Shown: positions 38,794-47,050 of the stretch, piece after piece
How the letters are laid out: every line of letters starts with the position of its first letter
Position numbering within the stretch: the stretch's first letter is position 1
Origin: Escherichia coli
GTDB lineage: Bacteria > Pseudomonadota > Gammaproteobacteria > Enterobacterales > Enterobacteriaceae
Length of the DNA: 64,000 nucleotides
Strand: one strand, 5' to 3'
Assembly (NCBI RefSeq): GCF_050320075.1
Contig: NZ_CP190018.1
Program-made: the position numbers and the translations under genes
The notes under the pieces: model-generated
Databases searched by the model: none
What the model saw: the letters and a program-made list of their open reading frames with translations, nothing else
Told to the model about the DNA's origin: nothing

Positions 38794-38813
38794 TTGGCAC
38801 GAGAGTAGTTTAA
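38794..38813. repeat. distal att-site remnant (degenerate copy of tRNA-Pro 3' end)
   Basis: TTGGCACGAGAGTAGTTTAA versus TCGGCACGAGAGGATTTGAA at 46974-46993. Confidence 0.65.
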
Positions 38814-39168
38814 TTGAGCCTGTAACTGTATGATTTTAAAGATGTAGATTAATTGAGTTTTGAAATCGTATATCCAAACGTATAACTAAAATGATTTGCT
38901 GCAAAAATGTACAGCTTTAACCGTTATCATTTTCCGGCTATTCGCTATGAAGCTGGCTGGTGGATAAGCACGGATAACCTGACATCTACAGCCGCCTTAA
39001 AAGCTGAACCCGACAAGCATATCGGCATCATGCCCACCAGCGTGACGCATTTTTTTAATTGCGCGGGCGTAAAAATTTGACGGGGCGGACAGTTCCATAA
39101 GTAATGGATTGCAGGAATTTCGCCCCCCCTCCTGAATGCAATTTTTCGTATATATATACAAAACCACC

Positions 39169-39291
39169 CGTCCCACCTGTCCCGCCTGTCCCACTGGCAC
39201 CTAACAAATTGATTTTGTTAGAAATAAATTAGGTAAGGTAGGACAAGTCCAGGCTGTTTTGGGACAAGTTGGGGGGGAGGTGGGACAAGTC
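39169..39291. repeat. iteron cluster A (TGTCCC-type repeats in both orientations around an AT-rich palindrome)
   Basis: Three direct copies (CGTCCCAC, CTGTCCCGC, CTGTCCCAC; 9-bp spacing), AT-rich centre with CTAACAAA-ttgat-TTTGTTAG, then three inverted copies (G)GGACAAGT at ~20-bp spacing; flanked by C7 and G7 tracts. Confidence 0.7.
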
Positions 39292-39824
39292 GAGCGAGTG
39301 AATCAAGCCGTGTTAGCGCGGTAAAGCGACAGTGCCGCCGCAATTTTGCGTTGTCGGGAGGCCACCGTAACAGCCACCATACGCGCACAATCTTCGGTGG
39401 TAACGCAATCCAGACGTGCGCAACATCCCCAGATAGGAAATCATTACCTAGCACAGCTAATTGCGCCAGAATCGATTACAGCGCGTTTCTGTGGCATTCA
39501 AGAACGGCTATCACTAGTGTATTGATATGTAATCCGCATATGAGTTTAAGCAACAAAATGATCCCCTTTCGAAAAAGGCACTAACCGTTTTTTCCGAAAT
39601 GATCCGTTGGTGATTTTGTAACTTATTGTTTTGTAGATGTAATTTTAAACTTGATAGGGTTATAAATAGGGGGCGTTTTTGTCAAGAATTGCAAATAATG
39701 CTCGTTTATTGTTCTTTGTTTGTTTGTTTTCTGTTCGTTGATGGGGGATCATTTTGCACTTTTTGGGGGATCATTTCGGAGGGGGGGGGCTGGCAACACG
39801 CCAGCACCCTCGATGCGTTTGTTT

Positions 39825-40034
39825 TTAGCAGTACTCCCAGTCTGTGGCTAGTAGGCTCTCAGGAGATAGCGTAACGCTATCCTCTGTGACGGGATTCAAC
39901 GCAATCAAATCGTTTCCGCGCCGTTCGAGAAAGACGATGTACGGAAGATGCCAGGCACTGCGGCGAGCTGGCACGCGTCGGCCTGGCTGCAACTTGTCGA
40001 GAATATCCACCAGCGAAACGTTCATGTGATTCAA
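39825..40034 (-). CDS. hypothetical small protein (69 aa)
   Basis: ORF with AGGAG Shine-Dalgarno 5 nt upstream of a TTG start (in-frame ATG three codons later); last gene of the island's minus-strand gene string. Confidence 0.45.
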   Translation of the reverse strand: MNHMNVSLVDILDKLQPGRRVPARRSAWHLPYIVFLERRGNDLIALNPVTEDSVTLSPESLLATDWEYC

Positions 40035-40090
40035 AAAACTCCTGAAACGCTCTACAACTCAATAACACAAAAAATAATGCAGAACTGCCA

Positions 40091-40375
40091 CTATAAAACC
40101 TTGTCTGTCTGGTAGTTCCGCCAGACAGATTTTGCGATTTCTATCCCCATATCCGCCTGTGTGCGGTGTGCTGCCTCTCTCAAGCTCCCGAAATTATCCA
40201 GCATGACGGGCGAACGTGCTGCCTTGTGGATACATTTCGCGCGACGCTTTACTGCCTGTTCGCGCTCCTTATCGGTGTTCACCTGTTGCATGACCTCAGC
40301 CCATCGGGCCGCCGCTCTCCGGTACAGGCCTTTAGCCTCCAGATCTTCCGCTTTGCTGTCGTGAATCATACTCAT
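40091..40375 (-). CDS. PerC-family transcriptional regulator-like protein
   Basis: 94 aa with AEDLEAKGLYRRAAARWAEV, resembling the PerC/Pch signature; start overlaps the upstream gene's stop (ATGA). Confidence 0.55.
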   Translation of the reverse strand: MSMIHDSKAEDLEAKGLYRRAAARWAEVMQQVNTDKEREQAVKRRAKCIHKAARSPVMLDNFGSLREAAHRTQADMGIEIAKSVWRNYQTDKVL

Positions 40376-40908
40376 ACGCCAGCTTGCTCCTTGTTCGACT
40401 TACGTTTGCGCTTCTCTTTCAGTGCCATCAGTCGTGCTTCCGCGTCCTGCTGTTCCTGTTGTGTCACCTCGCCGCATGGCTGGCTATTCAGATCGTAACG
40501 CACGCCACCAGCCATTAAGGCACGGTAATAACGCGGAGAATGAGCATAAGATGCTAGCGCCGCACGTAATGCCCCTGACCCAAAAGCCAGCGCCCTGACG
40601 GCAATATCCTGTATCAGGTCTTCAAATATTCCTACCTTAAGCGGCTTCGGTGATTCCAGGCTGAATAATTCAGGCCATAGTTCAATAAGACGGTTAACGC
40701 GCCTGCGGTTTTTGCCCTGGCGTTTGGTCATATGCCGCCACGGTGTCGCCCCTGTGGGCTTCTGTTTGCGGCTCTGCTGTGCGTTCTGATTGCCGGGTAT
40801 CACTTTATGCGCTGATGTGGTTTTATCCTGCTGCTGTGTCGTCTGTGTCTTTTTCTGTGGTATGCCGTAAATGCCTTTCGGTTTTCTGCTAATAGTCAGT
40901 GTAGTCAT
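40372..40908 (-). CDS. FinO/ProQ-domain RNA-binding protein
   Basis: 178 aa; residues ~80-165 align with the ProQ N-terminal domain (PLKVGIFEDLIQDIA ~ PLKIGIFQDLVDRVA; LRAALASYAHSPRYY ~ LRSALRLYTSSWRYL; RYDLNSQPCGEV ~ RVDLDGNPCGEL). Basic Lys/Arg-rich termini; GAGG SD upstream. Confidence 0.8.
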   Translation of the reverse strand: MTTLTISRKPKGIYGIPQKKTQTTQQQDKTTSAHKVIPGNQNAQQSRKQKPTGATPWRHMTKRQGKNRRRVNRLIELWPELFSLESPKPLKVGIFEDLIQDIAVRALAFGSGALRAALASYAHSPRYYRALMAGGVRYDLNSQPCGEVTQQEQQDAEARLMALKEKRKRKSNKEQAGV

Positions 40909-40943
40909 TATTTGTTAACCTCTGTTAGTGAATCCACTGGCAG

Positions 40944-45269: not shown

Positions 45270-45474
45270 CCTATTTCTCCTCTGGACAGCAAAATATCGC
45301 TTTTTGAATGAAAATAACGGTAAGTAATGTAATAAGCATACAAATCTATAAAAAAGACAGTCAAGAATTATTTAATAAGAGCTATGTGATTGGTTATTTT
45401 TTAATTTTCTAACATAAAAAGAATTTAAATGTTTCTCAAAATGAGACAGTATTGAGAAAGTAATGAGACACAAA

Positions 45475-45506
45475 TTAGCTCCTAACTGATACCAATTAGG
45501 AGCTAA
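45475..45506. other. perfect hairpin immediately downstream of the integrase gene
   Basis: TTAGCTCCTAA-ctgatacca-ATTAGGAGCTAA (11-bp perfect arms) followed by a T-rich tract on the plus strand; likely terminator or binding site. Confidence 0.45.
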
Positions 45507-45522
45507 TAATTTTTTAAATATT

Positions 45523-46767
45523 TTATTTTATTCCGCGTAATCCTCTGTGCCCGCTGGCGATGGTTGTTCCGGTTGCGGCTGCTTCCACAAAATCACCCCA
45601 CCAGCACATTAACACTTTACGTTTTTCCAGGTAGTTGCTTCGGTTGTATGCCCGTCTAACTTCGTTTGTGTCCACGTGGGCTAGTGCGGCTTCGATCACG
45701 TCAGGTTCAAATCCTTCTTCATTCGCCGCCGTGCTGAATATTGCGCGTAGTCCGTGAGATACCAGCACACCAGCGTAACCCATTCGTCGTAATGCTGCGT
45801 TTGCTGTCTGGCTGCTCATTGATTGCACTGGATTTTTAAGACTTGGGAAAACATGCTCCCTTCGTGCGCTAATCGGCTTCATGGCTTCAAGCACTGCCAT
45901 CGCCTGAGCGCAAAGGGGGATCACATGATCACGGCGCATCTTCATGCGTCCGGCTGGTATCGTCCAGGTTGCCGCCTCAAGGTTGATTTCTTCCCACCGT
46001 GCGGCGGAGGCTTCGGCTGGGCGGGTTGCGGTTAACAACTGCCACTCAATCAGCAATCTGGTTTGCCGTTCTATGCTGGCGATCGATAAATCGTGCATTA
46101 GCTGCGGTAGTTGTTCCGGTCGGATGGTTGGCATGTGCTTTTTGGTGGGGGAAGGGAATGCCTTGCGAACGTTCGCGGCGGTGTTGATGTCAATCAGTCC
46201 ACTGTTGGCAGCAAAATCCATCACTTCATTGATGCGCTGTAAAACGCGTTTCAGTGTTTCCAGGTTGCCACGTGCCTTGATGGGCGTGAGTATCTCAACA
46301 AAGCGGCGAGCGGTGAGAGTATCTATCGGTGTGTTTCCGATATACGGGAATACATATTTCTCTAGCGAGCGCCAGATGTCCTTGATCGTATTGTGGGCGA
46401 GATTCTGGTTTTTTTTCATTTCGTACCACAATGCGGCCACATTTTCGAACGTGTTGCCCTGTCGTCGAGCCTCTGCTTCGAGTTTTTGCCGTTCGTATTC
46501 CTGCGGGTCGGTTCCTGCCGCAATTAACGTCCTGTACTCGCTACGGCGTTTTCTGGCATCAGCCAGGGAGACTTCATCAAGCGAGCCCAAACTAATGATT
46601 GTTCGTTTTTTGTTCGATGGTCGATAGTAGTTGAATCGCCATAGTTTCGAACCAGACGGCTTAATAACGAGAAAAAGCCCGCCGCCATCCTGTAAGGTGT
46701 ATTCTTTTTCCGCTGGTTTAGCTGCTTTGATCTGTGTGGTGGTGAGTGGGGTCGCCTTTCTTGCCAT
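45523..46767 (-). CDS. int: tyrosine recombinase / integrase, P4 family
   Basis: 414 aa; N-terminal arm-binding domain (LTTTQIKAAKPAEKEYTLQDGGGLFLVIKPSGSKLWRFNYY), catalytic region with R...HGLR...Y; adjacent to the tRNA 3' end. Confidence 0.9.
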   Translation of the reverse strand: MARKATPLTTTQIKAAKPAEKEYTLQDGGGLFLVIKPSGSKLWRFNYYRPSNKKRTIISLGSLDEVSLADARKRRSEYRTLIAAGTDPQEYERQKLEAEARRQGNTFENVAALWYEMKKNQNLAHNTIKDIWRSLEKYVFPYIGNTPIDTLTARRFVEILTPIKARGNLETLKRVLQRINEVMDFAANSGLIDINTAANVRKAFPSPTKKHMPTIRPEQLPQLMHDLSIASIERQTRLLIEWQLLTATRPAEASAARWEEINLEAATWTIPAGRMKMRRDHVIPLCAQAMAVLEAMKPISARREHVFPSLKNPVQSMSSQTANAALRRMGYAGVLVSHGLRAIFSTAANEEGFEPDVIEAALAHVDTNEVRRAYNRSNYLEKRKVLMCWWGDFVEAAATGTTIASGHRGLRGIK

Positions 46768-46799
46768 ACGTTTATGAATCCACGGGAAAAAACAGGTTC

Positions 46800-46856
46800 T
46801 AGTTATACGGATTTAGCTATGCGCCAGCCCGTATAACTAAACATATAACTAAAAAA
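46800..46856. repeat. candidate integrase arm-type sites (GTATAACTA repeats)
   Basis: TAGTTATACGG (inverted), GTATAACTAAA and ATATAACTAAAA between int and the tRNA; another copy CGTATAACTAAA at 38879-38890 near the other island end. Confidence 0.5.
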
Positions 46857-46973
46857 AACGGCTGAAAACCACTGTTACCGTCGAATAACGATGACTAAAA
46901 ACAATAAAAAAACCCGCTATTCAATGAATTAGCGGGCTTATTTCATAAAAACGATAATTAATAATGGGCGATT

Positions 46974-47050
46974 TGGTCGGCACGAGAGGATTTGAACCTC
47001 CGACCCCCGACACCCCATGACGGTGCGCTACCAGGCTGCGCTACGTGCCG
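46974..47050 (-). tRNA. proL: tRNA-Pro (anticodon GGG inferred)
   Basis: Minus strand reads CGGCACGTAGCGCAGCCTGGTAGCGCACCGTCATGGGGTGTCGGGGGTCGGAGGTTCAAATCCTCTCGTGCCGACCA: 77 nt, cloverleaf-compatible, GGTTCAAATCC T-arm, encoded CCA. Confidence 0.9.

Follow-up and report, generated by a model that had tools for sequence, protein, structure and literature searches.

A compact island at proL in Escherichia coli that probably represents a phage-inducible chromosomal island without a packaging zone

Among the phage-inducible chromosomal islands (PICIs) of Escherichia coli, EcCICFT073 is activated by AlpA, requires int and pri, and is packaged from cos sites in full-size capsids (PMC6092414), its 144-residue protein RppA redirecting the helper TerS to the island cos (PMC6739421). 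Mageeney et al. describe PICIs by a scheme of four zones: Integration, Bro, Replication and Late. Elements with int, alpA and a primase gene only have been counted as "Type C PICIs" by SatelliteFinder, which found more than 6,000 of them and set them aside as uncertain or possibly defective (PMC10085698), and satellites built on an int-AlpA-primase core, the chromosomal minimalist islands, inducible by phages, that are called PICMIs, provide a precedent for packaging as concatemers (PMC10803314). Here we describe an island of about 8.18 kb (about 38806-46988) that separates yejO from the tRNA-Pro gene proL in a 64-kb stretch of an E. coli chromosome (RefSeq GCF_050320075.1, contig NZ_CP190018.1; hereafter the window). 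We read it as a compact member of the Gram-negative (E. coli) PICIs, with Integration, regulatory and Replication zones and no Late zone, and put the probability of this reading at roughly 0.6. Most likely it is a compact PICI variant that can excise itself and replicate, in which the proposed insertion at proL, the antisense gate and a Rep-iteron replicon with its own SSB rest on sequence and homology.

We found that the window contains one tRNA gene, tRNA-Pro(GGG), at 46974..47050 on the minus strand (ARAGORN, with Rfam in agreement). In K-12 MG1655 the terminator hairpin of yejO directly adjoins proL, which makes this an empty site; because the K-12 terminator stands next to proL without the block, the block is an insertion. 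When we ran megablast against 5,426 complete E. coli genomes, taking coverage of at least 80% of the query as presence, the island was found in 52 of them (about 1%) at 95.6-100% identity, and the flanks were matched in 5,425. A sequence-only reading of this DNA had proposed a discrete 8.2-kb integrase-bearing island between yejO and proL, with replication and regulatory cargo, and had named an alignment with K-12 as a check for an empty site. This proposal is borne out: the K-12 alignment shows yejO directly followed by proL, and the island is variably present. The same reading had named two findings that would undo it, namely a block present in all E. coli and a flanking repeat that does not derive from the tRNA. 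The distribution speaks against the first; as to the second, the boundary repeat does derive from the tRNA 3' end, of which it is a gapped copy whose core is exact. The repeat had been scored as 16 matches in 20, a figure that is right as to the tRNA origin and approximate only as a count, because the repeat is gapped, with TCGG missing from attL; once the 4-nucleotide gap is allowed, about 15 matches remain.

The left junction reads GGGATTTTTGG, the four-position gap, the core CACGAGAG (38798-38805) and then TAGTTTAATTGAGCC, and the right junction reads GGGCGATTTGGTCGGCACGAGAG / GATTTGAACC, with the core at 46981-46988. In the alignment the repeat thus consists of the exact CACGAGAG core with TTTGG on its left. 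The attL site varies among copies of the island: most lack TCGG, and the copy in strain TUM9803 (locus L012) lacks GG only. The sites compared were 38798-38805 in the window, 502 in L012 and 828 in L006, a larger relative at the same proL site (strain PSS-15, about 16.8 kb). According to a published proposal, one attachment (att) site of a PICI is left with a tRNA fragment that is damaged, and the variable attL junction fits this idea; restoration of an intact proL upon excision would depend on the crossover point. Repeats of the TATAACTAAA type occur at 38867-38905 in the attL arm and again beside int at 46830-46868 (direct repeat family D2), and are candidate arm-type sites at which the integrase may bind. 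In the few genomes inspected, proL was occupied by PICI-like elements only. As to the neighbouring gene, yejO of the window (36102-38693) encodes an intact autotransporter of 863 residues and the K-12 yejO is a pseudogene interrupted by IS5; in three other island-carrying strains no yejO gene was called between the island and narP.

All ten protein genes of the island are encoded on the minus strand, beginning with int and alpA, and profile searches agree in outline with the genes first read from the sequence: int, AlpA, a DUF927 replication protein, SSB, ProQ/FinO and PerC. Five further small open reading frames (ORFs) had been left unassigned at that stage; one of these encodes an Icd-like protein, one a DUF4222 protein of the RgdR family, and a 198-residue ORF overlies two RNA genes. 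In CFT073, EcCICFT073 lies between roxA and phoQ and has the order int, helix-turn-helix (alpA), Icd-like, small ORFs, DUF4222, primase, SSB, PerC and c1498-c1504. By tblastn, five island proteins match it: the Icd-like protein (52% identity), DUF4222 (67%), the first 159 residues of Pri (40%), SSB (66%) and PerC (54%). The integrases are only 25% identical, as expected because the att sites differ. The DUF4222 gene of CFT073 encodes 99 residues, stands just upstream of pri, and matches C1493, the CFT073 homologue of RgdR, a regulator of the enterocyte effacement locus (LEE) (PMC3378721). RgdR is encoded by every E. coli PICI analysed by Fillol-Salom et al.

The replication gene extends this kinship to PICIs that do have a late module. 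A peptide-pattern scan of IMG/VR with the Pri-Rep protein gave 132 confirmed relatives; 80 loci were retained from these and searched by tblastn with a panel of PICI proteins. Six elements carry the same DUF927 Pri-Rep (75-92% identity) together with c1498, the capsid homologue c1499, the decoration homologue c1500, c1501 and c1504, at about 77-99% identity, and two of the six also carry RppA. Other loci pair the DUF927 Pri-Rep with other integrases, antirepressor-type genes, ProQ, PerC or a TerS homologue. Four short "phage" records (2-16 kb; OR845527.1, OR851044.1, LR881103.1 and PP003922.1) also match Pri-Rep, and may be satellites or lysate fragments deposited as phages.

In its organization, the island shares with Gram-negative PICIs an int gene followed by a co-oriented alpA, unidirectional genes without a divergent Stl-type repressor, protein homology to established PICI genes, and the absence of phage tail, lysis or full structural modules (PHROGs, NCBIfam). 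What it lacks is a late/packaging zone, which in such PICIs consists of cos with Rpp, or terS, often with a capsid homologue; of the four zones of Mageeney et al., the Late zone is the one missing. With int, alpA and pri-rep only, it falls short of the SatelliteFinder PICI model, whose Types A and B need four or more of the five core components, and, judged by gene content against the published model, is a "Type C PICI". The sequence-only reading had placed the island outside the canonical PICIs and considered it a candidate undescribed system. The gene order and five proteins of EcCICFT073, the layout of the replication origin (ori) and the shared Pri-Rep speak otherwise. Because of this homology and collinearity, the PICI-like ori, the shared Pri-Rep and the fact that Type C elements have already been counted, the island belongs, as a modular and reduced variant, to the Gram-negative PICI family already described and is no new kind of element.

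Two features of the putative replicon support its placement among PICIs. First, Pri-Rep has an N-terminal part (residues 1-159) in common with the Pri of EcCICFT073, followed by DUF927 and then a P-loop helicase region. Residues 231-604 match PDB entries 8tch, "Pathogenicity island protein" (1e-14), and 5dgk, "Active helicase", which are presumably the Rep of Staphylococcus aureus pathogenicity islands (SaPIs) and the Cch of the staphylococcal cassette chromosome mec (SCCmec), and the protein also gives a sub-threshold match to NCBIfam Cch1. Second, the predicted ori lies immediately 3' of pri-rep and has two iteron sets around an AT-rich spacer, the layout reported for Gram-negative PICIs, in which two iteron sets flank an AT-rich region 3' of pri/rep (PMC6092414, Fig. 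2 legend).

The island has a second site of this kind. At 2.2 kb from the ori, the distal cluster presents the ori iterons in mirror order, with at least two full copies and a degenerate third of the GTCCCAC-type repeat at 39165-39199 and three copies of GGACAAGT at 21-nucleotide spacing at 39240-39290. L006 uses a different iteron (GCGGGTTA) in the same two-cluster layout (1283-1428 and 10685-10821); since the distal cluster thus co-varies with Rep specificity, it is unlikely to be due to chance. EcCICFT073 and an O104:H4 relative (L007) have one iteron cluster only. A third cluster of repeats, convergent around an AT-rich stretch, is found in the interval from the distal iterons to orf69. 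The three exact AAATGATCCCC copies in it are the only ones in the window, and the same 11-mer forms iterons at 21-22-nucleotide spacing in three unrelated IMG/VR contigs. This cluster could be what is left of an ori that served a different type of Rep, or a site that is bound by a protein or used in packaging.

Upstream of the replication genes, we found what appears to be an antisense switch. In 5' to 3' order on the minus strand, it consists of an isrK-like RNA with the upstream sites a1 (TTACCAC) and b1 (GTTACAGG), a C4-type antisense RNA with the loops b' (TCCTGTAAC) and a' (GTGGTAA), and the downstream sites a2 and b2, of which b2 overlaps the AGGAGG Shine-Dalgarno sequence of icd. The complementarities between the C4 loops and a1, b1, a2 and b2 are 7-9 nucleotides long. 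A C4 RNA with two loops, and with sites up- and downstream of it, the downstream one covering the ribosome-binding site of an Icd-like gene, corresponds by sequence to the P1 immI/IsrK type, and we take the isrK/C4/icd layout to be the P1 immI arrangement. The icd gene and the next ORF overlap by 8 nucleotides, and DUF4222 and pri-rep overlap as ATGA; because of these overlaps, the genes that would be gated are those of the satellite's replication operon. A related system, isrK-orf45-anrP of Gifsy-1, produces read-through transcripts that are translationally inactive, the short IsrK RNA activates in trans, and the downstream genes are translationally coupled (PMC4825925).

The loops and targets of the switch change together within the island lineage. 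The window copy has the loop CCTGTAAC with GTTACAGG at both b1 and b2, and the copies in strain LR-24 (L011) and TUM9803 have the loop CCTTTTGC with GCAAAAGG at both b1 and b2, the scaffold and the a elements being kept. This covariation is the strongest evidence that the predicted switch is functional, and covariation of the three sites extends to five further elements. A Shiga toxin (Stx) phage and two other PICI types have their own mutually complementary sets at both loops, and a P1-like phage has an exact match only between its a loop and a1. Rfam detected the module in four PICI relatives and did not detect it in EcCICFT073, L006 or L007. Cross-talk with Stx phages was considered and rejected: Stx phage DNA matches the isrK/C4 segment at 82-84% identity, but its recognition loops and targets are others, so that specificity is not shared. 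Exact and relaxed loop searches of IMG/VR gave nothing relevant, and a loop match in L010 was due to chance, as it lies inside an ORF of 1,191 residues. The founding paper on Gram-negative PICIs contains none of the words "antisense", "icd" and "sRNA", and the survey of Mageeney et al. does not contain "antisense"; as far as the literature searched shows, a link between the isrK/C4 switch and the control of PICI replication has not yet been spelled out.

Some traits could also suggest a P4-like satellite, or its remnant, that depends on a P2-type helper: the integrase is of the P4 type and accompanied by AlpA, a C4/CI-like antisense RNA precedes the replication gene, the two iteron clusters stand apart in a way that recalls the P4 ori/crr, and there is an "ash family" annotation. 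We consider this very improbable. Homologues of Sid, Psu, Delta and epsilon and an alpha-type primase-helicase were not found in the island (PHROGs, NCBIfam), nor was a P2/P4 cos within 4 mismatches, and the island proteins match EcCICFT073, not P4; no P4 record appeared among the 22 tblastn matches of Pri-Rep, in a phage collection whose inclusion of P4 was not separately confirmed. As for the annotation, the RefSeq "ash family" pseudogene is the 198-residue ORF (44254-44850, minus strand), which Pfam Phage_ASH matches and which overlies the isrK-like (44597-44673) and C4 (44485-44572) RNA genes. Because the conserved part coincides with these two RNA genes, the protein family looks like a translated RNA locus.

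Differences among the island copies bear on whether the compact PICI is maintained. The LR-24 and TUM9803 copies are 95.6-96.5% identical overall, that is, up to 4.4% diverged, and every gene in them is intact. Divergence is mosaic: the TUM9803 int is 99.4% identical to that of the window and its Pri-Rep 97.5%, the spacer between alpA and int is the most variable segment (63-89% identity between copies), and the icd/isrK segment is also strongly diverged (83-89%). Together with the variable attL, this mosaic divergence suggests that islands have exchanged sequence with one another and that integration has taken place more than once.

The larger relative shows what a late zone at proL can look like. 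L006 encodes a DUF1441 protein that is 60-65% identical to the small terminase of lambdoid phages of the mEp460/Ayreon type, and has two copies of an mEp460-type cos region (3503-3610 and 8787-8870). It also has a second PerC gene, and an IS21-family element is inserted between its features at 3503-3610, 5548-6057, 6290-8592 and 8787-8870. The compact island and L006 have in common the attL-proximal 360 nucleotides, PerC/ProQ/SSB and most of Pri-Rep only. We also considered whether an ancestor resembling L006 could have given rise to the compact island when its two PerC genes recombined, and rejected this because 39165-40107 is unique sequence without a counterpart in L006.

This relationship raises the alternative that the island is a defective relic, i.e. 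a once-complete PICI, like the 16.8-kb PSS-15 element, that lost its late/packaging zone and has since persisted, no longer transmissible as a satellite, only by vertical descent and homologous recombination through the flanks. In its favour, the larger same-site relative has the TerS homologue and two helper-type cos copies that the compact island lacks, searches of public contigs gave no excised form, all contexts are chromosomal and at proL, and the authors of SatelliteFinder regarded three-component elements as possibly defective (PMC10085698). Against it, no copy examined has a broken gene despite the divergence just described. Coordinated changes of specificity at three sites of the switch would be hard to keep without selection, the distal iteron cluster, the arm repeats and orf69 are conserved, and the segment from PerC to the distal iterons is no scar of a deletion from the L006 arrangement, being unique sequence that bears an ORF and a repeat cluster of its own. 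We regard the relic as unlikely, though a serious contender.

Several observations do weigh against a compact PICI that excises and replicates. The island has no homologue of Rpp, TerS or capsid, no lambda cosN at up to 1 mismatch, no P2 cos within 4 mismatches and no cos of the mEp460 type, of which L006 has its two copies beside a TerS homologue; cos or pac sites of other helpers could exist in it. No primase domain is detectable in Pri-Rep, only DUF927 and the SaPI-Rep/Cch-like helicase region, so that the primase part of its first description as a primase/NTPase-like gene is unsupported. No attP junction was found in IMG/VR or JGI metagenome contigs, and none of the 80 IMG/VR Pri-Rep relatives is of the compact form. 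All ten further island contexts inspected have the same chromosomal proL site in E. coli, so vertical descent and homologous recombination could explain much of the distribution. Finally, no helper phage was identified. The C4 specificity of the island is shared by no deposited phage, the best match being 84% identical with different loops, and so this route gives no pointer to a helper.

With respect to packaging sites, EcCICFT073 has two exact lambda cosN sites (17559 and 18298 of locus L005). A candidate lambda-type cos in the island, ACGGGGCGGAC at about 39080, was rejected: it has no cosN match at up to 2 mismatches, and it belongs to the arm that L006 also has, whereas the cos copies of L006 are at other places. 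The absence of capsid, terminase and Sid/Psu/Delta-like genes, noted from the outset, held up in searches with PHROGs, NCBIfam, PADLOC and tblastn, which likewise found no tail or lysis genes in the window island.

A further alternative is that the element moves by a conjugative or otherwise non-phage route, as an integrative mobilisable element or a helper-free, plasmid-like integrative replicon. Its self-contained replicon (Rep, ori, SSB) and a gene from the FinO family, which is most familiar from conjugative plasmids, would be compatible with this. Yet there is no relaxase, oriT-associated gene or coupling protein in the island (PHROGs, NCBIfam), its unique region has no match among 72,556 plasmids, and every homologous module occurs in phage-satellite contexts, which together make such a route highly improbable.

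Returning to the compact PICI, we propose the following working model. The P4-type integrase and AlpA would insert and excise the element at the 3' end of proL, using the TTTGG...CACGAGAG core and the TATAACTAAA arm repeats. In the resting state, the operon icd-orf61-DUF4222-pri-rep would be silent: the C4 antisense RNA, made from the operon leader, would pair through its two loops with a2 and with b2, which covers the ribosome-binding site of icd, and the overlapping cistrons (icd/orf61 and DUF4222/pri) would pass the translational block down the operon. By analogy with IsrK of Gifsy-1, the isrK-like RNA would supply the decoy sites a1 and b1, such that a burst of leader transcription titrates C4 and turns translation on. 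Pri-Rep, a DUF927 helicase, is predicted to bind the GGGACAAG iterons at the ori and at the mirror-image cluster 2.2 kb away and, with the island SSB, to replicate the excised circle. If induction resembles that of EcCICFT073, a helper phage would turn on alpA and leader transcription. Transfer would presumably need helper virions, and in the absence of Rpp, TerS, a capsid homologue and a recognisable cos, it would have to proceed through an unrecognised packaging site, for which the AAATGATCCCC cluster or the conserved attL arm are speculative candidates, or, equally speculatively, through headful uptake of concatemers, as in PICMIs. In its fullest form, this model describes a functional minimalist satellite without packaging-redirection genes or a recognisable cos, whose replication is licensed by an isrK/C4 switch specific to itself, the diversifying specificity of which would serve as a code of immunity or incompatibility between PICIs and phages that share a host, and which has a two-site replicon and spreads by concatemers or through an unrecognised site such as the AAATGATCCCC cluster; taken as a whole, we hold that form to be doubtful.

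The remaining genes are probably cargo or regulators. The ProQ/FinO protein matches the structures of ProQ (5nb9, 1e-13), FinO (1dvo) and RocC (7rgt), and it, PerC and the RgdR-like protein may act on host genes. The last of these has HGD at residues 20-22 where the LEE-activating protein of enterohaemorrhagic E. coli (EHEC) has RGD; in RgdR, the change R20C abolished activation of type III secretion (PMC3378721). PADLOC found no defence cargo in the island. The small orf69 is 99-100% conserved among diverged island copies. Searches of 5.8 billion and 1.8 billion proteins returned only near-identical E. coli homologues and there was no Pfam match; an AlphaFold2 (AF2) model (predicted local distance difference test, pLDDT, 70) gave no significant fold match in PDB or BFVD. 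A role as a DUF2829/Tad2-like anti-defence protein was rejected on these results, and a match to P0007 was a chance match to a repeat protein. Pfam domains of int, determined on identical copies, are Arm-DNA-bind_3, Phage_int_M and Phage_integrase. Directly downstream of the int stop is a hairpin with a 15-bp stem (ATTAGCTCCTAATTGG..., 45457-45524). The int-alpA RNA motif RF02996 was not found in the window island even at E<=1, and occurs beside the integrase in L007 (16835-16902). Coordinates of all features are given in Table 1.

Table 1. Features of the proL island, in window coordinates, with the evidence for each
Feature	Coordinates	Strand	Evidence and remarks
attL	38792..38805		Degenerate copy of the tRNA-Pro 3' end, TTTTGG-CACGAGAG; K-12 empty site and attR alignment
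attL-proximal arm	38806..39164		Common to L006 (blastn, 88-93% identity)
Distal iteron cluster	39165..39300		GTCCCAC-type repeats, AT-rich spacer, 3x GGACAAGT
Third repeat cluster	39556..39776		AAATGATCCCC exact x3 (39556 +, 39744 -, 39766 -); degenerate copy 39597 +
orf69, orphan small ORF	39825..40034	-	Compact island only
PerC-family transcriptional activator, accessory	40091..40375	-	phrog_994 4e-36; Pfam PF06069 on identical copies
ProQ/FinO-domain RNA chaperone homologue	40372..40908	-	NCBIfam FinO 1.7e-18, ProQ 2.7e-17
SSB	40944..41369	-	TIGR00621 above cut-off
Predicted ori	41445..41581		CTTGTCCCAC CTGTCCCA, AT-rich spacer of ~50 nucleotides, 4x GGGACAAG(T/A) at 11/21-nucleotide spacing
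Pri-Rep replication initiator/helicase, 711 residues	41606..43741	-	Pfam DUF927 9.5e-46; phrog_1139
DUF4222 protein, RgdR family	43738..44025	-	Pfam PF13973; stop overlaps pri-rep start (ATGA)
61-residue ORF	44065..44250	-	phrog_3672 2.6e-14; 8-nucleotide overlap with icd stop
Icd-like small protein	44243..44431	-	NCBIfam NF033153 2e-16; first cistron of the replication operon
Downstream C4 targets	44441..44480	-	a2 TTACCAC 44474-44480; b2 GTTACAGGA 44441-44449
C4-type antisense RNA	44485..44572	-	Rfam RF01695, 78.7 bits against gathering 45, E 2e-15
isrK-like RNA with intrinsic terminator	44597..44673	-	Rfam RF01394, 61.6 bits against gathering 50; terminator scan
AlpA, regulator/excisionase family	45078..45269	-	Pfam PF05930 Phage_AlpA 6.6e-6; phrog_66
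int, P4/CP4-57-type tyrosine integrase	45523..46767	-	NCBIfam NF007246, 552 bits against cut-off 434
attR	46971..47050	-	Within and adjoining the intact proL tRNA-Pro(GGG)

PICIs have mostly been counted and classified by their packaging and capsid genes, and int-alpA-replicase elements are usually discarded although thousands exist. A conserved lineage in E. coli, with its easy genetics, could settle whether such reduced elements remain satellites and, if they do, could show how few functions suffice to exploit a helper. The predicted switch is the most directly testable part, as natural variants differ coordinately at the loop and at both targets. It may also explain how Gram-negative PICIs, having no Stl-type repressor, are kept silent, an open point in the literature. 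In addition, regulators of the PerC and RgdR families affect the expression of the LEE and of type III secretion in other strains.

How, then, does the island compare with the systems already described? What sets it apart is that a conserved lineage has no packaging zone at all, that the predicted antisense switch ahead of its replication operon demonstrably co-evolves, and that its predicted replicon has two sites. With EcCICFT073 and the other E. coli PICIs (Fillol-Salom et al. 2018, 2019), it shares the unidirectional succession of int, alpA, icd-like, DUF4222/RgdR, pri-rep, ori, SSB and PerC, and neither has an Stl-type repressor. Unlike EcCICFT073, it lacks the c1499/c1500 homologues, RppA and the two lambda-type cosN sites, and it sits at proL, not at roxA-phoQ, with a different integrase. 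It adds the ProQ/FinO gene, an isrK/C4 switch that Rfam can detect, and the second, distal iteron cluster.

With immI of P1/P7 (c4-icd-ant) and isrK-orf45-anrP of Gifsy-1, the island has in common RNA families that reach the Rfam gathering score, the succession of a1,b1, C4 (a',b') and a2,b2 over the ribosome-binding site of an Icd-like gene with translationally coupled genes downstream, and a specificity that lies in two short loops and differs between elements (PMC4825925). The genes gated differ: in the island they would be those of a replication operon (DUF4222, Pri-Rep), not an antirepressor. The Pri-Rep helicase region resembles SaPI Rep and SCCmec Cch through its matches to 8tch and 5dgk, whereas the N-terminal 160 residues are shared only with the Pri of enterobacterial PICIs and the iterons are unrelated. 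The island parallels P4 in that an antisense RNA, which in P4 confers immunity, precedes the replication gene, that the integrase is of the P4 type and paired with an AlpA/Vis-type protein, and that two iteron regions (ori/crr in P4) lie apart, but the island is without sid, delta, psu, epsilon and P2 cos. Lastly, the PICMIs of Vibrionaceae (Barcia-Cruz et al. 2024) are alike in gene content, with a core of int, AlpA and a primase/replicase and no capsid-remodelling genes, terS or recognisable cos/pac (PMC10803314). They belong to Vibrionaceae and lie next to fis, whereas the island lies at proL in E. coli, and packaging as concatemers, which has been demonstrated for PICMIs, is for the island a hypothesis that this likeness suggests.

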